Shown piece after piece: positions 1,400 to 54,250 of a stretch of 64,000 nt of DNA; within the stretch, counting starts at the first letter, position 1, and every line of letters starts with the position of its first letter. The notes under the pieces were generated by a model, which was given only the letters and a program-made list of their open reading frames with translations, was not told the DNA's origin and searched no databases. The position numbers and the translations under genes are program-made. Origin of the DNA: Mizuhopecten yessoensis (Eukaryota); the NCBI RefSeq assembly GCF_002113885.1, contig NW_018408881.1:1-64000 (forward strand), given 5' to 3'.

Positions 1400-1488
1400 C
1401 CAAGTCACATACCTTCATTAATGGATATCGACAAAAGTATGTATAATCTGCTGGCCAGATTTCAAGGCGGGGGGAGCTAGCCCGTAAG
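1400..1488 (+). other. Putative non-coding first exon (contains a 19-codon uORF, 1421-1480)
   Basis: Perfect 5' splice site AAG|GTGAGT at 1488/1489 could join the acceptor TTTAAG| at 2091/2092. The transcription start is not known, so the start coordinate is approximate. Confidence 0.4.
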
Positions 1489-2097
1489 GTGAGTATGACA
1501 ACATTATGATTTTTAGAACTTCAGTATGTCTGAGAGCGTTGCAAGACTTAATACATTTGTATACAGTCCTAAATTGTGTCCAATTACAGAATAAATATGA
1601 CAATACCTTATAGGGCTTGGCTATGCGGAAATGATTTTTGTAATACAATTGTTTCTAACGTATATCAAAGGGACAACTTCTGATTATATACATATATTAT
1701 ACTATATATATACATGTATATATATATACTGATATCAGATATGAATCTCTTAAATAAACTAGAAAAATATATAATGGTTCAATATAAACATAAATTGAAA
1801 AGCAGTATTTGCCTGCAACTGAATCGTTTTTTCTCTTCTATAGCAAATGTAAAATTATGTACGTATTTTACTAAAAGTTTCATTATGATTGTTTTCCTCA
1901 TATAGGACATAATCGGTAAACAAATTATTTCAATGCCCGGTTAACTATTGTGTTCAGTTAAGGAAAGCCAAACTGAACATTTTTACAGCTCAACATAATT
2001 CATATTGCTCACTTTCATACACATTATTTCGAGTAATTACCATGAAACCTTGACATTTGTTTATCGTATAGTATGATATGTTTCATTTAAGGTGACA

Positions 2098-2334
2098 ATG
2101 GGCGTGGATTTGGCAGTGTATCGTTCACGGGTCGGTCAGTTTGTGCCTCGACCAGTGAAGGGTATTGTGTCAAACATTGACTACCTTTGTAAAGCTATCG
2201 CCAGTGTTCGGGGTGGCCTGATACGACAAGATGGATTAAACAGCAAGGGAGCTGTTACATTCATTGGTCTCCTCCTGCGTGCACAGGGCATAGAGTCGAA
2301 CCCAGGTCCAGGACCAGGAAAGGGAGATGAACAT
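2098..2334 (+). CDS. First coding exon with 2A-like (StopGo-like) motif LLLRAQGIESNPG/P
   Basis: Translation MGVDLAVYRSRVGQFVPRP...AVTFIGLLLRAQGIESNPGPGPGKGDEH. Acceptor at 2090-2091, donor GTACGT at 2335. The canonical 2A is D(V/I)ExNPGP; here the D is replaced by G. Confidence 0.65.
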
Positions 2335-5300
2335 GTACGTTTAATTTCATAACTTAAATTACGAAACGTGTGGTATTTGTTCATACAAAACTGAATGAAT
2401 TTTGGTGAAGTCTGCTATCTGCAGGTGTTATTGGATTGCAGATGTACAAATATAATGAACAGTCATTCTCATTCTCTATTGACTTGGTCTAAACAATGCA
2501 AAATATTAGGCTTTAAACAGCATTGAAACCAGTCATATTGTTACCCGTAATTTCTTTATATATTTTTGTTGACATGTACTTGTTTCTACATTTTCAGTTT
2601 TTTTTAATAAAAAGCTTTCCCTTACAGTCATTTGCAGACGCACAGACGGAAGACAATGACGATATCAACATCACACTCGGTACGTTCGACACCACCCTTC
2701 GGATTTTAAAACAGTAATAAGACATTAGACCAGCTGATAAATGTTGTGAAAAACTTCTTGATTTTTTTTCTTTTCTCCCAAATACACGCTCAGTTTGATG
2801 TTTCTAAAGTATCAGTAATGCAGGGGTTTCATTACACAGACAGGAGAATATTTCTGGAGAAAAAAACATCGGTATTATAGGATTAATTCTCAGCCTCTCT
2901 GGACCTAGACTACACGATGACAAAATTGAGATGTGAAACGGTATGTTATCGGAGTTTAAGTAATATGATTAATACACATATAATAAATAATACATTATAC
3001 AAGTAAGTTATATTTTTGCAACTTTTAAAAGCAACCTTCACGGACGAATGTTGTAAAATTTATAAATATATAGATACCAGTCAGCTGGTATCATTAGCAA
3101 CAACGAAATTAAATTTAAAATCGTTACCAAAGATATACACTCAGTATAATTCACGCTCACGATGTGTACGTTTGTTGCGATATATATTCTATATATTGTT
3201 TGTCTTAAAAGTTCTCAATGGAGTTTTTGGTTAAATGTCTTTATTTTCCTAGACTAAATGCTCTCTGGGCTGCATTTATACAGCGAATAAAGCTAGTATG
3301 TAAAAAGGATTACCAAGAGCTAAGTTCTATTTTTGAAAATTCCCTAAATCAACATCGTTATAGGTATTATGTTATTTATACCCGACTCCAACAGTGTTGT
3401 AGCAAAGTAAATAATCCACGCGTTACAAGTAAAAATGTATACTGCATTATACTTCAGTACTGTGTTTATCATGGTTTTAAAGTAAAATATGTTGAGATAT
3501 TCTTAAGAATCTCTACCCTTTTTAAAAGACTCTTATGTACATCAAGTAACAAAACATAGAACATGTCAAGTGAAAATTAATGTAATTTGATCGTAGGCCT
3601 TGCAATACATCTTAAACAGTTTTTGAATGTGTTCAGTTATTCCATTACAGACAGTAACACTGACCCAAACATGGCTGACAGGATTAGCCAGTTTATGGAA
3701 TCTGTTCTACCTGTCAACAATCCCACCAATAATGGAAGTAGTCAAACAGACGAGTACGAAGGCGCAGTAGCAATACCTGGTCCTTCTTCCGGAGCAATTG
3801 CCAAAACAACCATTGTACCTCAAGGTAAAGTAATGAAACACTTTTGCAAAACAGTAGATAATGTGGATTCAACATTGGATATTTAATATCAGAACTGAAT
3901 TGTTCCATATAACCTTTATGTATATATAACAATAAATATCATGCTGTGCTAATTGTCGAATATTTAAGATAATGAGCTTTTCAAGTTGAGATTGTATCCT
4001 ATTTTCTTTTAATATATATATATATTGGACATATCTTTCAGTGGTGGTCAATTACCATGACAACAGAAAATATAATGAAGAGATTCGCGTAGAAAATATG
4101 AAAGTGAAAAACGCTGAAAATGTATGCACAGGACAGACTATCATCCATACTGGTTTGTATAGATTCAATCTTGTTACTGTTTTTTTTCCTAATTGTCCCT
4201 TGATATTTTATTCGTGAACACTTTATTTCGTGGTGAAGTGATTATCTTTTACAATGTTGATAGTTAATATTTATGTGTGGAATTAATATTCAAGAATAAT
4301 TAAAACTTGCAAGTGAGCTCCTTTTCGCCTTTTGGCCGGCGTCGTGCGTCCGTAAACAATTTATTTCGACCTCCTCTCCAAAACCCCTGCAGAAACCTGC
4401 CATGGCCAAAGATCAGCCAAACATGTCCAAAGGGGCCTGAGGGGCGGGGCCAAAAAGGGTCAAATTGACTAAAATTTCAAAAATCTTCTTCTCAAGATCC
4501 AGACATGGTAGAATCAAATACTCTTCATAGATGGAAGCATCTTAAGGTGCTTTACCAAAATTGTGAATTTCATGACCCTGGGGTCTCACGTTTCTCCCTT
4601 ACTGGGGAGGGGGTAAACTTTACTATAGTTTATATAAGGAAATCACATTTTGGACCAGTATTTGTTTAATTTTCATTGGAATTAATGCAAACTTGGATAG
4701 CATTATCCATATTCGATAGCAGTTTGATGATATGCACATATCAGCCCTGACTGGCCACCAGGGGCTGATGGTGGGACAAAAAAGGGTTGAATTGACTGAA
4801 ATTTCTAAAATCTTCTTCTCAAGACCCAGATATGGTAGAATATAATACTCTTCATAGATGGAAGCGTCTTAAGATGCTTTACCAAAATTGTGAATTTCAT
4901 GACCCTGGGGTCTCACGTGTCCCCCTATGGAGGGGTTAAACTTTGGTTTATATAAGGAAATCACGTTTTGGATCAGCATTTGTTTAATTTTCAATTGAAT
5001 TAATTCAAACATGGATAGCATTATCAATAATCGATAGCAGTTTGATGATATGCACATATCAGCCCTGACTGGCCACCAGGGGCTGATGGGAGGGGCCAAA
5101 AAGTGTTAAGTTTCCATTGGAATTAATTCAAACTTGGTAAGCATTATCAGTATTTGATAGCAGTTTGCTGATATGCACATATCAGCTCTGACTGACCCCC
5201 AGGGGCTGATGGTCGGGGCAAACAAGTGTTAAATTGACTAAAAATTGAAAAACTTCTTCTCAAGATCCAGATATGGAAGAATCAAATACTCTTCATAGAT

Positions 5301-8300
5301 CGATGGTCTTAAGGTGCTTTACCAAAATTCTGCTGACTGACAGAACCACTATTTGAACTACCCAGATCTTTCACACTACTTTTGCATTACATGTAGTTCA
5401 AGTTACCTTTTGTTACAAAATTATTTTCTTTTTCATTTGGCAACATCGATAACATCAGTTTTTACATAACTCAGGTGACCGTTAAGGCCCATGGACCTCC
5501 TGTTTATATTTCTTGGTGATGGATTATCATTATATCTTCAACATTGTTGTTGATTGAAAATGAAATGACAGTGTCAAATTTGCATTATTAGTTTTTAGAA
5601 CATACCAATACGATTATAGATTATTTCAAAGTTTTACTTAATACACGAACAATGTACATATCAAACGTGTCGCGACGTTTCAAGACCGTCTGCTATAACT
5701 GAGTGAGCGATTTGCATTGTTTATATGTACAACTATAAAACTACGTACTATATTCCATATGTCTCTGGACACGGGACGTTTCGCCTATCGATAGATAATA
5801 TATACACACTTTGTCGAACAGGTTACATATAAAATATATACAATCTCTTCACTCACTCAGTCATAACTTCACAAAGGGAGCAGTCGGTCTTGAAACTTTG
5901 CAACACGTTTAAAACTTTGATATGACATATTTCCAAACTGATGAATCTTATTGAAAATGATCTTAAATGAGTTTTCGGTTTTTATTCACTAGCGCCAACT
6001 GGCAATGAGGACGATGACGTTCCCAAACCAAAAAAGAAAAAGGAAGAGGAAAAAGAAGTTCCGAAAAGTGCCAAAAGAAATGCGTCTGAAGGTAAAATAT
6101 TTAAAAAGTTCCAATTACTGTGCATAACAAACGTTTATCCTGATAGCGATAAAATTACTATACAAACATGTTTAATGACAGTAGTGGTCACCATGTATGT
6201 ATAGCAAACTTGTATCCTGGTGTATTAGTTAGCATGTGATGGATGAAAGAAAAAATATTTTACATAACGAACACGTACATTAGTGAAAACAGGCAGCTTT
6301 TTAATTAACTGGGCGGTTTTCCCATGGGTTTCCCGGTAAAATAAGATAGAGAGTCATATAATGAACTCTTCCTCTACTTTCAACAGGATAGTGAACAATT
6401 GTGACAACCCCCAAGCTCTTCATATAGTACCACAGCCTTGCATCCTGTTGGCAGTTTGAATTAAAATTTAATCACCGTTACTCAAAAATGTGTATCCTGA
6501 TAACAACATAATGTCTTGAGTATAGGCACTTGAAGGAAGTCCGTTTTTCTTGTTGATGTAAACCATATAAAGGAAACCGCAAAAGTGACCGCTATAACAA
6601 AACTGAAAAGAAAATTTATGAACACCATTGAAAATATTACGATGACTGTAAATAGTGTTTTTTTTCAGCAACAGGGGAAGAGGATGAAAGCATTCCGGAA
6701 CCGAAGAAAATGAAACAGGCGAAGGAAGCAATTCTGAAAAGTCCCAAAAGAATAACTCTTGAAGGTAACATCCCGATGTTAGTTTGAACAGATGACATGC
6801 ATAAGCCAATTTGTCTGTACAACTCCCATTCTGCCAACTTCACCAGATGAAATATCAGTCGAGAATAATGCCGAGGTAGAACCAGTATCACATGACTTCA
6901 TTAATTTCCGCATATGTTAAATAATCCATTACTTTGCAATTGATAATAGACATATAACAATATGCACATAGTAATCTCTCGGGTAAGCATCCTGTGCACT
7001 CCAGAATCTGTGTTCAAATATATTTTTATCTGCGGTCTTGTAAGATCTTGAACTCTGACAGGTTAACCTTTGACCGTTCATTTTTCCGTTAAGGTTAACG
7101 TTGACTTCTAACATTTTTCCGACGGTCTTCAAATCAAACCCTAAAGTCGTTTGCCTCTCTCTGCCTTATATAATGGGACACATCTATCGTCTGCGATTTA
7201 TCTTTCAAGTGTGTAGGGATGTTTAAGAAAGTCTTATTGGGATACCTTGCCTTACTATGCCATTTCTTAAATTGGTTCGTTTCCGGCACAATTTTGATCA
7301 TACAAAAAAATGTAGCCCTACATTTCTTTATCGGAGTGTGAATTCGACTGTTTTAATTCAATGATGGAGATAGTTATTGTTAAATCCTGCTGCAATCCTC
7401 TTTTTTGATCTCTAGTGTATCATCAATATAGCTTTATACAATACCTAGACTTTTAGTCTGTACGGTCAATGTCTATGGTTTCTACATAAGACGTACTTCC
7501 CTTGCACCAATTGGCTAACACTTGATATACCTTGTTCCCCATAGCTGTGTCACAGCGTTGCTAATATTATTTGTTTAAAAAGATGAAGACCGTTGTCAAA
7601 CCATGTTGGCATAGACTTGCTTTCTTATGCCAGAAGTTTGAAATTTTAAGCAGTTCTGGATGTTACTGAGCGCTCGTGTGGAGGATATATTTGTGGAACT
7701 ACACACAACATCGTGTGCGGTAAGCTCTTCATCATCCAGGAGATGGTTAATGGAAGACACGCTTTCAGCCAAACCTTCTAGTTTTGAAACTATTGTAGTT
7801 AACAACCAACACAGTAGAAAAAGAAATACACCAAGTAAGGGCAAGGTTATCCATCTCCCCAAAAGATCTGTCTAAGAATTGCATCCAATACTCTTGAAAC
7901 ATTACATGAAAAACACGTTTATAATCAGTGTCCGACATGACATTTACACCTTTGTGCATTCGTGAAAGCATATCGTGATCTGGTTCTATTTGGGCATAGT
8001 TATTAAGATCTGATTGTTCGTCTTGTGAAGTTGACATCTTGCCTAAACACCTTTCGCGACAAAGTTACAAGCTTATATATTTTGCTGTGTTACATCAATT
8101 AATTTTACATCCTTTGTCACCCAGACAGAAAGAGCTTCAAAAATATTCTGAAATGATTGATTTCTATATCTTGTAACACGCAGAATAAAACCTTTTTTTA
8201 AATGCTTGCGTAATGCATCCATCTTTTCAATATCTTTTGTGCATTTAATTTGTCTAAAGCCACAACAGGATTTTTACTTTAATTTAATCTGTTTCCCAGA

Positions 8301-11300
8301 CAATGCTGAAACAATGTTAAAACGACACATCGAGGAAACAGACAATATTCTGGTGACTAGGAGGGAAGCTGTAACGGCAGTGGCCAATCGTCTGAAAGAN
8401 NNNNNNNNNNNNNNNNNNNNNNNNNNNNNNNNNNNNNNNNNNNNNNNNNNNNNNNNNNNNNNNNNNNNNNNNNNNNNNNNNNNNNNNNNNNNNNNNNNNN
8501 NNNNNNNNNNNNNNNNNNNNNNNNNNNNNNNNNNNNNNNNNNNNNNNNNNNNNNNNNNNNNNNNNNNNNNNNNNNNNNNNNNNNNNNNNNNNNNNNNNNN
8601 NNNNNNNNNNNNNNNNNNNNNNNNNNNNNNNNNNNNNNNNNNNNNNNNNNNNNNNNNNNNNNNNNNNNNNNNNNNNNNNNNGGTGTTTACATTTGGGCAT
8701 CAGTCAACTGCAGACAGTGTTTGTATTGTGTTTGGAAAAGAAAATCCAGAAATTATTTTAGAAAAATGTAGCAACCGTGTGATATTGGAACTGCTGGATG
8801 TTTCTGAAACTGATCAAACCGATATTTGCACCTTACATGTTCCTAAGAATTGCTTTGAACACCTTGTAAAGCGAATTTACAAGATGATTATTGAAGGGGA
8901 TGGAATAACACTAGAATCATTCCCCCGGTTCAAAAATCAAGAGCTTGCAGATTGTCTCTTAAAGTATATCACCACAATTGGAGACATACGAGCTTTCCAT
9001 CGAGCTCATTTAGGTTACTTTTCCACCAGAAGTCTATTAGAATCTTGTGCGAACAATGTTTTTTTCTTGAAAGCTCTTTTCAATTTCAAAGTTGATGAGT
9101 TCATTGTCAAAGAAAGCGGTATTTTGTTCTTTTCGAGAACATTACAGGGAACATTACTACGATCCCTAGAACATAAAAACAAGGCATCCATGTCTTTTCT
9201 GATTGCAAAGGGAGCGTTCTTAACGGAAAAATGTCTTCATGAAGCAATTAGTTCCAATGACGTGGACTTGACAGAGTTCGTATTATCAAGGAATATCTGG
9301 ATAAGATCAGAAATCAGAAGGTGCACCAAACTTGACACGCCAGATAATATACGTGGTGTCCTAGAGAGGGGAACCAGCATGTGCAAGGTACAGGAGATAA
9401 GGAATCTGTATCGCAATCAGAATTCATACCAAGCATCTACAAAACTATCACATATGAGTGCCAAAGATATGTCGACAGCCGTTGAAGCAATGGATTTTAA
9501 CACGCTACAAACGATTTTTCAGTCCCCGGGGTTGAAAAATCAGCATAATTGTCTTATAAAAGCAATCCTGGACAAAAAACACAAGCAATTAAATGATGCT
9601 ATCGCCATTAAAAGAATAGCTGGACAAATCGACGGAACAGTTGTCCAGTATGCGTTACATCATTGTGACTTGGACATGTTTCGTTTCTTACTTTTGTCAT
9701 CAAACATCAGTGCTTCACATCTGAACTCAGTGCTTTCTGAAGCCATTCATCTGAACAAAACTGACGAAATAGAAGTTCTGATCAAGGCAGGTGGACAACC
9801 GACTCTGGAAGATTTTGTGAACAAAGCAGGGACAACGTGTATGGGTGTGGAGTGTGTTGTTGAAACTATCATGAAAACCACATCATGGACACGTGAACAG
9901 CTTGATCGTGCTCTTGACGCAGCCGTGCGCTCCGGTACACATGCTTCAATGAAATTCCTTATCAAAGGTGGAGCAAAGTTTCTAGAAGATGCGTTGGTAA
10001 ATGTATCTAAAAGGCATTATGGTCCGGAAGTGGAGTATAAATACAAATTGACTGCTTCCTCTACAAAAGCAGATGATAAGCTGAGGGAACTTTTAGAAGA
10101 AGTTCCGGCAATAAAAATAGTAGCACAAGTTCACGCTACAGTTCAATATGTATTTTCGGAACACGAATGGTCGCAAAAGCAACTGGATGATGCACTTGAT
10201 GCTGCATTAGTATCGGGGTCAAGGGCAACCTTACAATTGCTGAGGCTCAGTGGAGGCACGTTTCACAGCAATGCTTTGTTAGCCGCTGTAAGAAACCTGC
10301 GTTATGCACTACCCATTGTTAGGTTTGTGCGAGAGTATGGGGAATGGTCAGTTGACCAGCTGAGCAATGCATTACACGAGGCTTTAGTCATTTGCAGGCC
10401 GGACTTTATTATTTACTTGAATGAAGAAGGAGCATTGTTCAATGATTCGAGTTTAAAAAATGTTCTTCGGTGGAAGGTTGAACAACATGTTCAGATCAAA
10501 CACATAAAACACATTCTTAAAGCTCGAACCTGGTCACCATTTCTGCTAGATGAAGCCATTGATTTTGCATGTGAAACAGAAGGACTTGCAATTCTTGCAA
10601 GTCTACCAATTGCAGAGGCTAGGTCAGAATCACTCACTAGAAATGTTCTTCTAAAATTACGAGCGGTTGGAAAGAAGAAAAAATGGATTATTCAGACGTT
10701 AAAAAGCAGAGGCATGGATGCTGATCTTGCTTTAGTTTTGAATTATGAAATTCAAGAAGGTTGCACAGACATTGTTGAACATCTTATTGGTGAGCTGGGG
10801 ATTTCCTGTGACAACGATGGCTTATCAAATGCCATGGACAACACCCGGAACTATCAAAGCTATGAGAGACTGAAAATGGTCCGTCTGGTGCGTGAATCGC
10901 AAAACTGGTCTGATGAGTTGCTGACGAGGGCGTTAGACAAAGCTGTTGGACTCGGGTACAGTGAGGTGATATTGTACCTACATACCCAAGGGGCCAAGTT
11001 CAGTGACAACAGCCTGGAGTACGCAATGATGCATAAAAATATAGGATACGAGCCATATGATTTTGTTACTTATATAATGGAATCACGCCATTTCAACAAA
11101 GAACAAATGAACAGTGCACTGACAAAATCTTTAGAGATTGGCCATTATAAACTCGTGACCATGTTTCATGAAAAGGGAGCAGAGTTCGCCGAAAAAAGCC
11201 TACAAAACGCAATCCGCAAAGAGTGGATACTCTCAGATCGACTCCCAGCAGTCCAGTTCATACTTAATGCAAGACGATGGGACACTGATGAAAAGAATGA

Positions 11301-11559
11301 CGCGCTGCACAAGGCTGTAAAGTTAGGGGATGTAAGTTTAATTGCTTGTCTTCTCAAATGTGGAGGAGAGGTGTCGAAACAATGCTTGTCCGAAATTCTG
11401 GAGAAGAAATGCAAACCGTCACATCGCCTCTGTATCGTAAGGCTTCTGCTCTCTAGTTCCCATTTTTTGGCACGAGAGCTAATTGAAGAGGCAGGGGTAA
11501 AAGCTAGGCAACTGTCAGAGCCTAAACTCGAGGCGTACATCCAGCAATGTATCAAGTAG
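2098..11559 (+). CDS. Spliced gene: 2A-like N-terminus + linker exons + putative nSTAND3-like STAND NTPase (core in gap) + ankyrin-like repeat region
   Basis: Exons 2098-2334 (phase 0), 2628-2679, 3651-3824, 4042-4152, 5993-6091, 6669-6764 and 8300-11559 are all GT-AG and give one open frame. ILVTRREAVTAVANRLK before the gap resembles the segment just upstream of Walker A in nSTAND3. FTFGHQSTADSVCIVFGKENPEIILEKCS...FEHLVKRI after the gap resembles the winged-helix/post-NTPase segment. Ankyrin-like repeats follow. Confidence 0.7.
4308..5504 (+). mobile_element. Non-autonomous Helentron/HINE-like element with internal tandem repeats
   Basis: 5' gtgagct...gtcgtgcgtccgtaaac microsatellite-like head, repeated internal blocks (cttcttctcaagatccaga...cttaaggtgctttaccaaaattgtgaatttcatgaccctgggg), and 3' end ctcaggtgaccgttaaggcccatggacctcctgtt (subTIR plus hairpin). 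Confidence 0.75.
5657..5923. mobile_element. MITE-like element with imperfect terminal inverted repeats
   Basis: catatcaaacgtgtcgcgacgtttcaagaccg...ctgagtgag on the left versus ctcactcag...cggtcttgaaactttgcaacacgttt...tttgatatg on the right. Confidence 0.55.
8300..11559 (+). CDS. Large terminal exon: STAND NTPase-associated region and degenerate ankyrin repeats
   Basis: Long ORF of ~958 codons after the gap with acceptor TTTCCCAG| at 8299/8300. Repeated motif W(S/T)xxQLDxALDxAxxxGxxxxxxxLxxxGAxF. Confidence 0.85.
8400..8681. other. Assembly gap (N run) inside a coding exon
   Basis: Run of n characters. Confidence 0.99.
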
Positions 11560-12146
11560 GGAAACGTCATAAACCTGGCGCCTATTCGATCTTGAAAATG
11601 GTTTCTTTTGGGAACAAAACCAGTCTATAATTCAGCATGCATGATATGATGAATATCATAGGATCACATGTATTATAAGAATGACAAGTTCATCTGTTTT
11701 AATAGAATAACATAACATGTTGATGCAGACGTCATTTATCCGGTTGCTGTAGTTTAGGAAACCCTGCCTTTCCAAAGCACAATTGTCCGAGCTATCCAGC
11801 CGTTTGTCATAGGAACGTCAGCGGCAGCAGACAGAAATGTTCTGTTGTGTCATGATCGCCAGGCAATAATTATGCTTAAGATGCAAAAACATAATGATTT
11901 ATGAGGATGACAGTGAAAAATCTTTAATAAACATTTCATAAGTCTTGCATTAAAGATGCAATTATTATTATGAATGAATGGTTTTGGTGGCAGAACACCA
12001 TGCAATTATTAGTATTGATCGACAATAGGTAAAAAAAAGAGATAATTAGACGAAAGGTGAAACATAAGGATTGTTTGACAAGAGGTAAAGCATGAGGATT
12101 GATTGACATTAGTTAAAGTATTAGGATTGTTTTTACAATGGGTTCA

Positions 12147-12583
12147 GCATAAGGATGGTACATGTATGACAATAGGTAAGGCAGTGAGATGGTTTGACAA
12201 TAGGTACAGCATTGAGATGGTACATGTATGACAATAGGTACAGCATTGGGATGGTACATGAATGACAATAGGTACAGCATTAAGATGGTACATGTATGAC
12301 AATAGGTACAGCATTGAGATGGTCCATGTATGACAATAGGTACAGTATTGGGATAGTACATGTATGACAATAGGTACAGCATTGGGATGGTACATGTATG
12401 GCAATAGGTACAGCATTAAAATGGTACATCTATGACAATAGGTACAGCATTGGGATGGTACATGTATGACAATAGGTACAGCATTGGGATGGTACATGTA
12501 TGACAATAGGTACAGCATTGGGATGGTACATGTATGACAATAGGTACAGCATTAAGATGGTACATGTATGACAATAGGTAAGG
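12147..12583. repeat. 34-bp minisatellite (~13 copies)
   Basis: Unit atgacaataggtacagcattgggatggtacatgt. Confidence 0.95.
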
Positions 12584-12640
12584 CATTAGTATTTATGATG
12601 CAGTGTAAATTGATGTTTGTGTATTACGTTCATCTCTGAG

Positions 12641-30600: not shown

Positions 30601-33600
30601 AGAGCAAAAGTGAAGATACTGTAGCTACTTAAAATGGAAATGAACTCAAAATCGTAACATTGTTTTAAATACATAAACAAAATTAAAGTATCAAGTCTGC
30701 TTTTGGCCTGATTCAATAGCCCCAAACTTTATAGATTATTTTCCTAATATCTCAGCCACGTACAACCCTTGCTAATTAAAATTAAACACATGCTGCAGAC
30801 ATTTATTCAACCTTCCTTCAAAAGCAATCATATCATAGGATCATATAGTTTATCTGGAGTTTAATTATCATAGGTTGCCTGTGTTATTTTCATATGGAAA
30901 TCCTTAAAAATGGCCTCACTTGAGATTTCTCAAACAATTAGCCCTCAAGATTTTTCTTTGAGGTTTATACATAGTGCAGTATGCAAATGACTCAACTGTA
31001 GGAGGGTAAAGGTGTGAGGAAAGGGCTGAACAATATTTTGAGTGTCACTGGTAACTTTAAGTGAATGAACTCTAGTATCAACTTACTCATGATCTAGAAT
31101 ATTATCAACGTCCTTGTCCCGAAACTTCTGTGTGTCTAGAATGGTAAAGAAATCCTGCAATATTAAAAACAAATTATTTAAATCATGTTTCAACAAAGCA
31201 GTAAGATTTTTTTAAATAAAATTAATTCTGCTTATTTCCAACTAGGATTAATGACAACCATTTTGGTTTTCTGTTGTTTTTTTTTTACATGATTAAAAAA
31301 TTGAATTCTCTGAAACATTACGTAACTTTAGATAACATGAAGTCTGTCAGCATAGCTTAACCCGTTTCAATTTGCTCCTACAAAGATGTTAGATCAGACA
31401 ATATTTTTAGAAATACCTCGATACGCTCCATAGCATTGTTCATATGAGCTGCCAAGTGGGCGTTGACCATGATGAGGTTGACACCGTTGATATCAAACCT
31501 GGTGCTGACACCTCCTTTGTTGCCCTATATAAGAAAAAAGATGCATTATTAATTATATGAAATAATTATCAAACACCAGTACTTGTGAATTTTCAATACT
31601 TTAATAACTTATTTAGATTTTCAATTTTTTCATAATTTTTCAAACTATTTTTACATGTATGCAAGGCATATATATTCCTGTACTTCTACTGGTATGTAAA
31701 TTTCTCTCATTTCCCTGTGTGTAAGACAAAGCTGTCCAGGGTAAGAATGGGGTGTAGGAAATTTCTATCTTACACCCCATTTCCCTATGGCTCAACAATG
31801 ACGTGACATCACGAGTTTGGAAAAACTCTGCTGCCGAAATGCGGAAAAGGCGAGGTGATGAAATTAAAACCTGTGAAAGTATTTACCTTACACATTAGAA
31901 ATATGAGATTTACTTTTTTTGCGCAAATTTGTTTGCATATATGGGGTATGCTTAATCTTGCTGACACATTCGTTTTTCGTCTAAAAAGCTAAGGGAAAAA
32001 AGTTGATATTTCAAAATGGTAGCCAGTCCAATCGCATTTTTATGGTTTCTGAGCCTATTCTGGTAGTAGGAACGAGAAAACAATACTCTTTCATGCCAAA
32101 AGGTGTAGGATAGGGGAATTTGAAAACCTCTCAGGTGGAATTTTCCTATCCTTCACCCCTGGGCATGAACGAGTCTTATAGTATTGGGAACTGTTTTGCC
32201 TTTATAATAGTTTACCTCTCAACCATTTTGCACACCGTAATAATGCTAAATTCATCAAGAAGGGGAATATCAATATACATGTAGTACAGAGGTAATTATG
32301 TTTTCAATGCCTTCGCCAGGAGTCGAACCCAGGACCTCTGGCTTACTAGTCTTACACTCTACCTAATGAGGTAAAGAGAAATTCTCACTAGTCGAGTCGG
32401 CAGAAAGCGACTAGTATTTTACCAGGGTCATAGCGATTCGAAAATACTGCAATACCATGATGCCAGTTATCAATTTTCCAAGTAGGTCTTCTTGTCTGAA
32501 AAGTTAATATTTGATGTATCAAAGAGAATGCATGTGTAGCCAATAAGATGACTTACCCACCAGCCACCCATACCAGCCTTGGACCTTTCAGACTCGATGT
32601 GTTCGTAGCTCAATAGGTTCTCCCTCTTCACAAAGGCTAACGATAACAGGCCCTGCATTCTTACCACTTTCACCTGGAAGCATAATATGAATGCGCAAAT
32701 GTAGGTGATAAAAGTTTTAACTTAAATGTTTCGTGTTCCTGATTTACTCAACTCGTGAAAAAATAAATACATTTAGGAATTCTTGATATCAATGAAGCAT
32801 TGACAATTACGTACCATAAACACATTGTAGGCAAGCAATTCTCTCTTCAATTAAGTTTGATAATGAAAATATTATACCAAGAATTAAGAATTATACCAAG
32901 AATTAAGAATTATCATTTTTATGTTCATATTGCCCCCCCCCCCCCCCCCATATGTACACCTATCATTTTTACATTGTGACATATTCGCTGAAAATGAAAG
33001 TGTTAATGGACAGGTCTATTTTCAGTAACAGTCACCTTGACCTTGACTTCAAAAACTTTTAAAACCATAGTGCACATTTCTACACATCACAATGTATTTC
33101 CATGTGAAATTTCATAAAGATGAATGAGTTTTTTCTGATTCAGAGGTGATCTCTTTAGTCTTGACATGAAAGTGATTGCTATATACGACACCCACGTCTT
33201 GGATTTGGGGTCCTAATGAGGTTGGGTAGGATCTTTATTAGATCTTTATTAGATCATGAATTATTTTTTATTAGTAATATTTATCCAATATATCACCAAC
33301 GATAAATCAAAATTACATTATAATAAATAAGTGTTGAATCTGAACCCACATAAAGCATTATTTCCTAATAGAAATTATAAATAATTATTCATTTTATTTT
33401 TTAATGAAATATTTGAGCAGGCTACTTTTAATGGGTTGGTTTTGGTCTGATACTAACCCGTACATATCCTGTTTTCCCGAGAATGTTTGTTAAAGTTTTT
33501 GTCCATTTGTTGTCTTCTGCATCTGCATCACCTGTGCTCACTTCCTGTAAACTGTGAAAAAAATGAAATAATGATAACCTAGCTACTTTCACTGGTAAAT

Positions 33601-43448: not shown

Positions 43449-45086
43449 TTTTTAGCTCACCTGGCCTTATGCTGTGGTCTCATCCGGCATCAATATTTCA
43501 CTTTAAACAACTTCTTAATAACCAAAAGGCCTAGGGTGATGATATTTAGCCAGAAGCAAACTGGGATGAAGGGCTACCAAGTTTGTTCAAATAAATGACC
43601 ACCTATTTTCAAGGCCACTGGGGTTAAATATGTTAAAATTTTAAACAGCTTCTTCTGAATAACCAAAATGCCCAGGGTGATGATATTTAGCCAGTAGCAT
43701 GCTTGAATGAAGGGCTACCAAGTTTGTTCAAATAAATGACCCCCTATTTTCAAGGCCACTGGGGTTAAATATGTTAAAATTTTAAACAGCTTCTTCTGAA
43801 TAACCAAAATGCCCAGGGTGATGATATTTAGCCAGTAGCATGCTTGAATGAAGGGCTACCAAGTTTGTTCAAATAAATGACCACCTATTTTCAAGGCCAC
43901 TGGGGGTAAATATGTTAAAATTTTAAACAGCTTCTTCTGAATAACCAAAATGCCCAGGGTGATGATATTTAGCCAGTAGCATGCTTGAATGAAGGGCTAC
44001 CAAGTTTGTTCAAATGAATGACCTTCATCCATTTTCAAGGTCACGGGGTCTTGAAAAATCTTTTTAAACAACTTCTGAACAACTAAGAGGCCTAGGATAA
44101 TGATATTTGGCCAGTAACATGCTAGGATGAAGGGTTACCAAGTTTGTTTTAATGAATGACCTTTACATATATTCAAGGTTACAGGGGTCAAATATGTTTA
44201 AAACCTTTAAACAACTTCTTCTGAATAACCAAGAGGCCTAGGGTTATGATAATTGGCAAGTAGCATGCTGGGATAAAGGGCTACCAAGTTTGTAACCATA
44301 AATGACCTTGACAAACATTCAAGGTCACAATGGTGAAATATGTTTAAAACTTTTCAACAACTTCTCAATAACCGAAAGTCCTAGGATGATGATGTTTGGC
44401 CAGTATCATGCTTGGATAAAGGGCTACCAAGTGTGTTCAATTGAATGACCTTAACTTACATTCAAGGTCACAGGGGTCAAATATGTTAAAAAAACTTGAT
44501 ACAAATTCTTCTGAATAGTCGAGAGGCATAGGATAATGATATTTGGCCAGTAGCATGCTGGGATAAACGACTACCAAGTTTGTTGAAATGAATGATCTTG
44601 AAGTATATCCAAGGTCACAGGGGTCAAATATGTTTAAAAAAATACAAATTCTTCTGAATGGCATAGGTTAATGAAGTTTAACGACTTCTCAATAAGGAAA
44701 AGGCCAAGGGTGATGATATTTGGCCATTAACATGATTGGATGAAGGACTACCAAGTTTGTTCAAATGAATGACCTTCGCCCATATTTAAGGTCACAGTGG
44801 TCAATATATGTTTAAATCTTTAAATTATTTGTTCTGTATAACCAAAAGGTCCAGGGTAATGATATTTTGCCAAAAGCATGCTTGGTTTGAAGCCTATAAA
44901 CTCTGTTCAATCTAACGTCCTTGTTTGACTTTCAAGGTCACAGGTGTCATATGTTTAAATCTTTCAATAGTTTCTAATGAATCAAACACTGATATTCTGC
45001 CTGTAGCTGTATTTTAGTCCACTTTTAAAAATATAAGTGTGAGATTAATACCAGGTAAGCGATTCAGGCCCATTGGGCCTCTTGTT
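43449..45086 (+). mobile_element. Complete HINE/Helentron-like non-autonomous element carrying a ~141-bp tandem array (~10-11 units)
   Basis: 5' ttttagctcacctg, 3' caggtaagcgattcaggcccattgggcctcttgtt. Internal unit ...ataaccaaaatgcccagggtgatgatatttagccagtagcatgcttgaatgaagggctaccaagtttgttcaaat... Confidence 0.88.
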
Positions 45087-50174: not shown

Positions 50175-53100
50175 CATAACTGAGGAAGCAACCAACTTGG
50201 TTGTACGTTATATATAACTGATGATGCGCCTGACTGAGGTGTACGTTATATATATAACTGAGGATGCGCCTGACTGGGTCGTGCGTTATAACAGAAGCAT
50301 CCGAATAGGTCGTGCGTTATAACTGAAGGAGCATCCGACTGGGCCGTGCGTTATAACTGAAGGAGCATCTGACGGGGTCGTGCGTTATAACAGAAGGAGC
50401 ATCCGACTGGGTCGCGCGTTACAACTGAAGGAACACCCGACTGGGGTGTGCGTTATAGCTGAAGGAGCTCCAGACTGGGTTGTGCGTTATAGATGAAGGA
50501 GCTCCCGACTGGGTCGTGCGTTATAGCTGAAGGAGCTCCCGACTGGGGTGTGCGTTACAGCTGAAGGAGCTCCAGACTGGGTTGTGCGTTATAGATGAAG
50601 GAACACCCGACTGGGTCGTGCGTTATAACAGAAGGAGCATCCGACTGGGGTCGTGCGTTACAGCTGAAGGAGCATCTGACGGGGTCGTGCGTTATAACAG
50701 AAGGAACATCCGACTGGGTCGTGCGTTATAACAGAAGGAGCATCCGACTGGGTCGTGCGTTATAACTGAAGGAGCATCTGACGGGGTCGTGCGTTATAAC
50801 AGAAGGAGCATCCGACTGGGTCGTGCGTTATAACTGAAGGAACACCCGACTGGGGTATGTTATAACAGAAGGAACATCCGAATAGGTCGTGCGTTATAAC
50901 AGAAGGAGCATCCGACTGGGTCGTGCGTTATAACTGAAGGAGCATCTGACGGGGTCGTGCGTTATAACAGAAGGAGCATCCGACTGGGTCGTGCGTTATA
51001 ACTGAAGGAACACCCGACTGGGGTATGTTATAACAGAAGGAACATCCGACTGGGTCGTGCGTTATAACAGAAGGAGCATCCGACTGGGTCGTGCGTTATA
51101 ACTGAAGGAACACCCGACTGGGGTATGTTATAACAGAAGGAACATCCGAATAGGTCGTGCGTTATAACAGAAGGAGCATCCGACTGGGTCGTGCGTTATA
51201 ACTGAAGGAGCATCTGACGGGGTCGTGCGTTATAACAGAAGGAGCATCCGACTGGGTCGTGCGTTATAACTGAAGGAACACCCGACTGGGGTGTGCGTTA
51301 TAGCTGAAGGAGCTCCAGACTGGGTTGTGCGTTATAGATGAAGGAACACCCGACTGGGTCGTGCGTTATAGCTGAAGGAGCTCCCGACTGGGGTGTGCGT
51401 TATACCTGAAGGAGCTCCCGACTGGGGTGTACGTTATAACTGAAGGAACTCCAAACTAGGTCGTGCGTTATAGCTAAAGGAGCTCCCGACTGGGGGGTAC
51501 GTTATAGATGAAGGAGTTTCCGACTGGGGTGTACGTTATAGCTGAAGGAGCTCCCGACTATGTCGTGCGTTACAGCTGAAGGAGCTCCAGACTGGGTCGT
51601 GCGTTATAACTGAAGGAGCTCCTGACTGGACGGGGGTTATAATGGAAGAAGCAATGGACTACATGGGTTGTGCGTTATAGCTGAAGGAGCTCCCGACTGG
51701 GGTGTACGTTAAAACTGAAGGAACTCCCGACTAGGTCGTGCGTTATAACAGAAGGAGCATCCGACTGGGTCGTGCGTTATAACTGAAGGAACTCGACTGG
51801 GTCGTGCGTTACAGCTGAAGGAGCTCCCGACTAGGTCGTGCGTTACAGCTGAAGGAGCTCCCGACTGGGGTGTGCGTTATAGCTGAAGGAGCTCCAGACT
51901 GGGTTATGCGTTATAGATGAAGGAACACCCGACTGGGTCGTGCGTTATAGCTGAAGGAGCTCCCGACTAGGTCGTGCGTTACAGCTGAAGGAGCTCCCGA
52001 CTGGGGTGTGCGTTATAGCTGAAGGAGCTCCCGACTGGGGTGTACGTTATAGCTGAAGGAGCTCCCGACTAGGTCGTGCGTTATAGCTGAAGGAGCTCCC
52101 GACTAGGTCGTGCGTTACAGCTGAAGGAACTCCCGACTGGGGTGTGCGTTATAGCTGAAGGAGCTCCCGACTGGGGTGTACGTTATAACTGAAGGAGCTC
52201 CCGACTATGTCGTGCGTTATAGCTGAAGGAGCTCCCGACTAGGTCGTGCGTTATAGATGAAGGAGCTCCCGACTGGGGTGTGCGTTATAGATGAAGGAGC
52301 TCCCGACTGGGGTGTACGTTATAACTGAAGGAGCTCCCGACTAGGTCGTGCGTTATAGCTGAAGGAGCTCCCGACTAGGTCGTGCGTTATAGATGAAGGA
52401 GCTCCCGACTGGGGTGTACGTTATAACTGAAGGAGCTCCCGACTAGGTCGTGCGTTATAGCTGAAGGAGCTCCCGACTAGGTCGTGCGTTATAGATGAAG
52501 GAGCTCCCGACTGGGGTGTACGTTATAACTGAAGGAGCTCCCGACTAGGTCGTGCGTTATAGCTGAAGGAGCTCCCGACTAGGTCGTGCGTTATAGATGA
52601 AGGAGCTCCCGACTGGGGTGTACGTTATAGCTGAAGGAGCTCCCGACTAGGTCGTGCGTTATAGCTGAAGGAGCTCCCGACTAGGTCGTGCGTTATAGCT
52701 GAAGGAGCTTCCGACTGGGTCGTGCGTTATAGATGAAGGAGTTCCCGACTGGGGTGTACGTTATAGCTGAAGGAGTTCCCGACTGGGGTGTACGTTATAG
52801 CTGAAGGAGCTCCCGACTAGGGCGTGCGTTATAGCTGAAGGAGCTCCCGACTGGGGTGTGCGTTATAGCTGAAGGAACACCCGACTAGGTCGTGCGTTAT
52901 AACTGAAGGAGCTCCCGACTGGAGTCGTGCGTTATAGCTGAAGGAGCTCCAGACTGGGTTGTGCGTTATAGCTGAAGGAACACCCGACTAGGTCGTGCGT
53001 TATAACTGAAGGAGCTCCCGACTGGAGTCGTGCGTTATAGCTGAAGGAGCTCCAGACTTGGTTGTGCGTTATAGCTGAAGGAGCTCCAGACTGGTGCGTT

Positions 53101-54250
53101 ATAGCTGAAGGAGCTCCAGACTGGGTTGTGCGTTATAGCTAAAGGAGCTCCCGACTGGGGTGTGCGTTATAGCTGAAGGAGCTCCCGACTGGGGTGGGCG
53201 TTATAGCTGAAGGAGCTCCCGACTGGGGTGGGCGTTATAGCTGAAGGAGCTCCCGACTGGGGTGTACGTTATAACTGAAGGAGCTCCCGACTAGGTCGTG
53301 CGTTATAGCTAAAGGAGCTCCCGACTGGGGTGTGCGTTATAGCTGAAGGAGCTCCCGACTGGGTGGTGCGTTATAGCTAAAGGAGCTCCCGACTGGGGTG
53401 TACGTTATAGCTGAAAGAGTTCCCGACTGGGTCGTGCGTTACAGCTGAAGGAGCTCCAGACTGGGTTGTGCGTTATAGCTGAAGGAACACCCGCCTAGGT
53501 CGTGCGTTATAACTGAAGGAGCTCCCGACTGGAGTCGTGCGTTATAGCTGAAGGAGCTCCCGACTTGGTTGTGCGTTATAGCTGAAGGAGCTCCAGACTG
53601 GGTTGTGCGTTATAGCTGAAGGAACACCCGCCTAGGTCGTGCGTTATAACTGAAGGAGCTCCCGACTGGGGTCGTGCGTTATAGCTGAAGGAGCTCCCGA
53701 CTGGGGGGTACGTCATAGCTGAAGGAGCTCCCGACTGGGGTGTGCGTTATAGCTGAAGGAGCTCCCGACTGGGTGGTGCGTTATAGCTAAAGGAGCTCCC
53801 GACTGGGGTGTGCGTTATAGCTGAAGGAGCTCCCGACTGGGGGGTACGTCATAGCTGAAGGAGCTCCCGACTGGGGTGTGCGTTATAGATGAAGGAGCTT
53901 CCGACTGGACGGGGGTTAAAATGGAAGAAGCAATGGACTACATGGGTTGTGCGTAAATTATACCTGAGGAACAACCATCCGACTGGGTTGTGTTTTATAA
54001 CTCAATATGCAAACAAATTGGTTGTGCGTTATTTTACCTAAAGAGGCACCCGATTGGATTGTGCCTGAAGAACCATTCATCTGGCTTGTGCATCAGAAGA
54101 ATCACCAGATTTGGTCGCGAGTCATAACTGAAGATCGTCAGACTTGGTTGCACGTTTCAACCGAAGAACGACCTTACTGGGTTGTATATATAACTTAAGA
54201 ACCACCCGACTGGGTTGCGCGTTCCAACAGAATTATCACCAGATTTGGTT
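50175..54250. repeat. ~4-kb satellite array, 34-bp unit (>100 copies), degenerate 33-bp units at the edges
   Basis: Unit cgttatagctgaaggagctcccgactggggtgtg and variants. Confidence 0.97.

Follow-up and report, generated by a model that had tools for sequence, protein, structure and literature searches.

Introduction

In StopGo (2A) translation, the nascent peptide jams the exit tunnel with Gly in the P site, the peptide is released, and the ribosome either restarts at Pro or drops off. The residues N, P, G and P are required by this ribosome mechanism, and activity is set by the upstream context. In clustered RNA-virus ORFs, Li et al. 2026 (PMC12846837) counted 1,207 octamers with G against 908 with D, and they extended the core to (D/G/C/N)(V/I)ExNPGP, with motifs 1, 3 and 5 associated with G and with Pro at x. 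G(V/I)ExNPGP thus ranks among the main StopGo cores and is no rarer in viruses than its D counterpart. The octamer GIESNPGP occurs 603 times in the text of Dataset S1 of that paper, which includes viral polyproteins with LLLxQ-G(I/V)ExNPGP, a context classed as "Unclassified"; LLRAQ itself is absent from Dataset S1, and motif 5, the nearest class, which is L-rich, was not among the motifs assayed in that paper. The IFV sequence AGIESNPGP skips at ~99% (review table, PMC8623073), and Grusopivirus A1 2A3, which ends in QGIESNPGP, has an in vitro profile like that of FMDV 2A (PMC11512398). When Arg precedes the G, an IFV peptide "does not cleave well" (PMC3508920), so activity with Gln in its place cannot be taken for granted.

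Cellular and transposon-borne 2As are also described. Those of Strongylocentrotus NLRs (Roulston et al. 2016, PMC4981915) are D-type, 26 aa long, placed at the extreme N-terminus of Death-NACHT-LRR proteins, and double as signal peptides. APE-type LINEs carry a 2A 40-80 aa from the N-terminus (PMC3708506), and a preprint (10.64898/2026.06.17.732966) adds ORF1p-linked 2As to the LINE parallels; the same preprint describes N-terminal cellular 2As on Death-domain, ankyrin-like and RapGEF proteins, with a Leu-rich helix at −19 to −10, hosts of immune or cell-death type and a proposed role in abundance control. Earlier publications already cover G-type cores, LINE leaders with 2As and invertebrate immune proteins with 2As, and neither a G-for-D change nor an extra GPG is new in itself.

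We investigated a 2A-like element in the scallop Mizuhopecten yessoensis, within a window that comprises the whole stretch of 64,000 nucleotides analyzed (NW_018408881.1, positions 1 to 64,000, forward strand). It shares with G-type viral StopGo (motif 5, PMC12846837; IFV 2A; grusopivirus 2A1-3, PMC11512398) the octamer GIESNPGP/GIEPNPGP and an L-rich upstream run, and the scallop paralogues and orthologues likewise prefer Pro at x, whereas the scallop gene is cellular, intron-containing and only a predicted skipper, with Gln before G instead of A/G/S. As with the sea-urchin 2As, its location is close to the N-terminus, and the protein that carries it is NLR-like, of the STAND class, and belongs to an expanded family in a marine invertebrate, but its G-type core (residues 64-71) follows a 63-aa leader with a basic-aromatic head, and its host is an nSTAND3-ankyrin protein. 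Its distance from the ORF start falls within the 40-80 aa of 2A-bearing non-LTR retrotransposons; unlike in those, the leader is a single host-gene exon under purifying selection, and ORF1p or APE-RT follows only in a related LINE on contig C515, not in the window gene. The Leu-rich upstream run, the N-terminal position and the host type resemble those of the cellular 2As in the preprint, the main text of which, in the parts consulted, contains no scallop or bivalve, no shared head and no nSTAND3, VLIG or PARP14 host, although its tables may include these peptides.

Results

We found that TFIGLLLRAQGIESNPGPGPG is the exact translation of positions 2257-2319 (+) and that its octamer GIESNPGP (2287-2310) fits the expanded core (D/G/C/N)(V/I)ExNPG↓P (arrow, skip site), so the 2A/StopGo-like element claimed in the preliminary description stands. 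Its treatment of G in place of D as a weakening oddity finds no support, as G marks a large functional class with upstream motifs of its own. The reading frame of the octamer opens at the ATG at 2098, and the core closes a 70-aa leader (Table 1). The motif exceeds chance expectation, because a degenerate G-type octamer pattern has 24 sites in the 988-Mb genome whereas the reversed pattern, used as a control, has 0. The upstream context offers three Leu at −19 to −10 and a modelled helix of low confidence (AlphaFold, residues 49-62; mean pLDDT of the leader 51), which points only weakly to a helix before the core. The 20-mer has no Trp and thus falls outside the Class B 2As (Rao et al. 2025), which are defined by an upstream Trp and an EEGIE-type centre.

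Table 1. Coordinates of the leader, the StopGo core and the exons of the host gene in the window.
Feature	Position	Strand	Remark
Exon 1, 3' part	1439..1488	+	sequence; RNA joint to exon 2
Exon 2	2092..2334	+	whole leader, 2A element and 8 more codons; phase-0 donor 2335
Leader head MGVDLAVYRSRVG, type MG(V/I)Dxx(Y/W)RxRIG	2098..2136	+	85% identity, 4 orthologues
Hydrophobic context upstream of 2A, AVTFIGLLLRAQ	2251..2286	+	three Leu within −19 to −10
G-type StopGo core GIESNPG↓P	2287..2310	+	residues G64-I-E-S-N-P-G70↓P71
Predicted skip site	Gly70 (2305-2307)↓Pro71 (2308-2310)	+	class defined in PMC12846837
Tandem 6-bp unit, CCAGGA x2, extra Pro-Gly	2308..2319	+	codon alignment, 4/8 family copies
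Exon 3, low-complexity linker	2628..2679	+	RNA joints
Exon 4, low-complexity linker	3651..3824	+	RNA joints
Exon 5, conserved short segment (…MKVKNAENVCTG…TIIH)	4042..4152	+	identity 66% vs 42% in linker before
Exon 6, charged linker	5993..6091	+	RNA joints
Exon 7, charged linker	6669..6764	+	RNA joints
Last exon, nSTAND3 NTPase then ankyrin repeats	8300..11559	+	Ank_2 E 3e-10; RNA depth X24

The element is expressed and lies in frame. RNA reads (runs from four studies) link 2334 to 2628 at GT..AG, with 26 reads in run X24 and 1 each in X19, X22 and X23. Further joints at 2679/3651, 3824/4042, 4152/5993, 6091/6669 and 6764/8300 (with small shifts to GT..AG), supported mainly by X23 and X24 and possibly including reads of close paralogues, connect the motif in frame to coding sequence downstream and to the 3.2-kb last exon. 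In reads over the core, x was Pro and not Ser in 51 of 60 cases (X24) and 19 of 19 (X23), to which paralogues may have contributed. A splice donor inside NPG↓P (CCAG/GTCC) was considered and rejected, being absent among the RNA joints listed; the exon reaches 2334. The spliced frame of ~1,340 aa, which spans an assembly gap, encodes the 70-aa leader and the core, after which a low-complexity linker leads to an nSTAND3 NTPase and then to ankyrin repeats; the gene has seven introns and contains neither RT nor endonuclease. Among named proteins, the nearest, at 99%, are those of Mizuhopecten yessoensis. The P-loop of the window's nSTAND3 falls within an N gap (8400-8681) but is intact in paralogues, one of which matches nSTAND3 at E 3e-25, and nSTAND3 with a P-loop plus C-terminal repeats was found in both paralogues and orthologues. 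A 95%-identical copy of the last exon lies on contig C3636, and the window gene may be an allele of that paralogue.

Other features of the locus were also recorded. An upstream ATG (1439) runs to a TAG (1480) as a 13-codon uORF in the window copy; the same ATG provides an 18-aa in-frame leader extension in the annotated paralogue P0004, and RNA reads at the 1439-1480 region have a form shorter by 2 bases. The exon 5 segment 4084-4152, located before the NTPase and 66% identical among orthologues, has no match in Pfam; its sequence is reminiscent of a RHIM-like amyloid motif. Intron 5 holds a dispersed element (4310-5480) to which numerous partial RNA reads map; tandem arrays occupy 12135-12587 (34-bp units), 43502-44659 (141-bp) and 50253-53908 (34-bp, 108 copies).

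A protein search of the genome returned 11 matches, namely eight family leaders (the window, five in tandem on C3636, and those on C29 and C4304), some of which are probably alleles, together with an orphan and two LINE copies. The core is intact in 7 of the 8 family copies and reads NPDP in the other, which belongs to the tandem cluster of five leader-bearing paralogues (G000:C3636:666812-741971); in another member of that cluster the last exon is broken. In Pecten, Ylistrum and Argopecten, the orthologues retain FIxLLLRxQGIE(S/P)NPGP, so ExNPGP is conserved among homologues, a point on which the preliminary description had let its claim depend. Among orthologues of four scallop genera, the 20-mer has a mean identity of 89% (protein median: 62%), a level attained by 3.2% of 1,487 protein windows and by 0.3% of the 1,026 windows outside the leader and NTPase. 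Against a distant paralogue, the head is 77-92% identical and the 20-mer 75%, compared with 52% for the NTPase, 38% for the rest and 23% for the linker, and substitutions between paralogues were largely synonymous, pN/pS over 71 codons being 0.03/0.22 and 0.04/0.26 against two paralogues. This conservation is evidence of selection, not of which function is selected.

The codons of the core G bear on its history. In the family they are GGC, GGA and GGG, with GGA or GGG in 4 of the 8 copies. Elsewhere in the genome, where 437 D-type and 24 G-type octamers were counted (controls: 0), all 13 G matches that are LINE-ORF2-like or broken, a set without the gene family, the orphan and the ORF1 LINE, encode the G as GGT/GGC, which differs from an Asp codon by a single step; a D-type sister was found for 7 of the 13 when 30 of the 437 D loci were compared. 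D-to-G decay thus exists in LINE copies of this genome, and the window motif behaves unlike them. On the grounds of codon use and conservation we rejected a relic through D-to-G decay for this gene, and with the 20-mer in the top 3% of conserved windows and G kept via GGC/GGA/GGG, the earlier suggestion of an inactivated relic could not be upheld.

The extra GPG, singled out in the preliminary description, proved to stem from tandem slippage of 6 bp beyond the skip site, and a meaning for it is not supported. The CCAGGA duplication is missing in the three other scallop genera (P0008-P0010) and appears recent, and NPGPGP recurs in 7 of 88 unrelated head-bearing matches. Since it sits after the skip site, the extra Pro-Gly is likely neutral; as a second skip site it was rejected, as it lacks the ExN register and is absent from the other genera.

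We then asked how widely the leader occurs. We searched 1.84 billion representatives with a profile built from nine leaders and obtained 140 matches, 90 of which bear the head MG(V/I)Dxx(Y/W)RxRIG. An ExNPGP core follows in 88 of these 90, 50-131 residues further on and at a fairly constant head-to-skip distance (median: 60; quartiles: 59-69 residues). Its first residue is G in 74, D in 9, C in 3, N in 1 and S in 1, the G share being inflated by the G-type query profile. N-myristoylation of the MG start was considered and set aside, as it does not hold consistently among homologues. A Pfam scan of 50 of the 140 matches, mostly longer proteins with a full leader match, and of P0011 found a family in 27 proteins, and 23 of these are of types that we label as immune-related: nSTAND3 (2), NACHT with DZIP3-HEPN (1), URGCP/very large inducible GTPase (6), PARP14-type RRM (11), Death (2) and Ig (1). 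The other four are Helitron, OTU, tri-helical and coiled coil. As leader-bearing proteins alone were scanned, immune enrichment among the hosts is suggestive only. Of ten proteins whose identity was looked up, nine are named proteins of bivalves (Mizuhopecten, Argopecten, Ruditapes, Mercenaria, Mactra, Mya). P0015 and P0048 comprise a scallop-type leader on an Argopecten Ig-domain protein and a leader with head and 2A on a Helitron Rep-helicase of 2,250 aa.

When scallop orthologues were added for a tree, the FIxxLL run and G core were present in 28 of 28 immune-labelled leaders, and the FIxxLL run in 0 of 7 transposon-like ones. In the tree, built on 46 columns, 15 of 87 branches were starred and only the 10 scallop leaders formed a clear larger clade; being mostly unresolved, such a tree cannot be expected to show the direction or number of captures. 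In our literature search, neither the head motif nor a 2A leader common to bivalve nSTAND3, VLIG or PARP14-type proteins turned up. Table S2 of Rao et al. (PMC12338488) has no AGIE(S/P)NPGP and no Mizuhopecten among 201 bivalve rows, the first 30 of which are all D-type mussel peptides, and D-anchored surveys can thus miss the G-type class.

The same type of leader occurs in transposons. In the scallop genome, a LINE that encodes RT and endonuclease bears both the head and a G-type core ahead of ORF1, and some ORF2 leaders carry a looser YRxAIG head ahead of the 2A; because of these resemblances, the leader is likely of transposon (LINE-type) origin. The LINE family with head, G-type 2A, ORF1 and then an endonuclease-RT ORF is represented by three copies, L022 (G000:C515:167001-177000), L021 and L052. 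The orphan leader (L009 / L025:9229-9408, G000:C2346) has Ile for Met, and its GIESNPGP is intact and precedes a hydrophobic stretch; this leader drew zero RNA reads in 4 runs, and ORFs near it are presumably Polinton-like. A bare ESNPGP can also come about by chance, as at 32320-32340 of the window, where it lies in a frame with a stop 10 codons upstream. Its DNA resembles what we take to be the reverse strand of a tRNA B-box (tRNA-derived SINE), and ARAGORN found no tRNA gene there; look-alikes of this type are a likely source of false 2A calls.

Discussion

On balance, we favour the reading that a transposon-derived StopGo leader releases itself and throttles the output of the nSTAND3-ankyrin gene, and we hold it with somewhat better than even confidence. 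The ribosome would stall at NPG↓P with Gly70 in the P site and release the leader. On some passes, restart at Pro71 would yield the predicted immune sensor with an N-terminal Pro; on others, drop-off would yield no sensor, and such partial drop-off may serve as a dosage limiter on a potentially harmful protein. Skipping, the limiter, the transposon origin and the immune role are what we infer. In a screen of 3,271 non-viral peptides, activity was associated with at least three Leu at −19 to −10, an L-rich G-type peptide of eukaryotic origin led to drop-off in cells, and 73% of the Death-domain-linked 2As were in the reduced-abundance class (10.64898/2026.06.17.732966). Together with the three Leu in the scallop peptide, these data favour release plus partial throttling, and tunable output is possible. 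The base rates call for caution: a phenotype was seen in only 821 of the 3,271 peptides (10.64898/2026.06.17.732966), only 43 of 580 retroelement peptides were highly active (10.64898/2026.09.24.754024), and several CR1 2As were inactive in Odon et al. (PMC3708506), where both mollusc ones (oyster and limpet) were active. A short mussel peptide had a score of 0.01.

The strongest competitor, which we nevertheless regard as unlikely, is that skipping has been lost and the leader, still fused, is retained either as a helix with a role in structure or interaction or as a signal for pausing or degradation, its 2A look being inherited. Many cellular 2A-like peptides are inactive, one paralogue has NPDP, and true D-to-G decay is present in this genome, as the 13 GGT/GGC matches and the D-type sisters of 7 of them indicate; moreover, the head is conserved as strongly as the 2A, which skipping alone leaves unexplained. 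Against this, 88 of the 90 proteins with the head retain N, P, G and P although their downstream domains are unrelated, and the GGA or GGG codons in half of the family copies argue against a fresh slip from Asp.

The equally conserved head, which skipping does not explain, may mark a function of the released leader. Taken further, the released peptide of ~60-70 aa could itself be what is selected, its YRxRIG head binding RNA, the ribosome or a partner, and the 2A only freeing it. Head identity (85% among orthologues, 77-92% against the distant paralogue), the fairly constant head-to-skip distance and the joint movement of head and 2A across LINE, Helitron and host genes agree with such a role. 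However, the leader has no predicted fold (pLDDT 51), its Pfam scan gave zero families, its top ESM Atlas match was 0.84, with none of at least 0.9, and its middle part varies among relatives. Selection on the leader would add to self-release with throttling more than replace it, and as a substitute we consider it quite improbable.

Still less probable, in our view, is dual targeting as in sea-urchin NLRs, in which unskipped products would enter the secretory pathway via the hydrophobic 2A helix and skipped ones would remain in the cytosol. Most domain types joined to the leader are cytosolic, and the hydrophobic run of the scallop leader is internal, beginning at residue 52, only 11 residues long and often containing Asp and Arg. 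Its best 19-residue hydropathy is 0.88 in the window leader and 0.88-1.16 in scallops, so the targeting element raised in the preliminary description finds little footing in so short a stretch. Clam versions are more hydrophobic (2.0-2.4), one Argopecten leader is joined to an Ig domain, and dual targeting has been shown for SpNLR2A6 (PMC4981915). Finally, a chance match or tRNA-SINE artefact, in which a reverse-strand B-box reads ESNPG, can be dismissed for 2287-2310 despite the look-alike at 32320-32340, given a coding exon with RNA joints, orthologues, synonymous variation and a reversed-pattern control of 0.

Beyond this gene, the putative self-releasing, throttling leader invites a broader proposal, which we put forward tentatively and at less than even odds in our own estimate: bivalves may have domesticated a leader of transposon origin, composed of the YRxRIG head and a G-type 2A, and turned it into a portable first exon for unrelated innate-immune proteins, i.e., nSTAND3 and NACHT sensors, very large inducible GTPases, and proteins of PARP14, Death and Ig type. 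In all of them it would serve as a common throttle or switch that acts during translation, and the same leader peptide would perhaps be released. The selected G-type element in four scallop genera and the shared leader form a natural test set for release, drop-off or targeting, with built-in controls in the NPDP paralogue, the S/P alleles and Q/H/A before G. If the proposal is true, these leaders would constitute a cellular StopGo regulon and not scattered leftovers.
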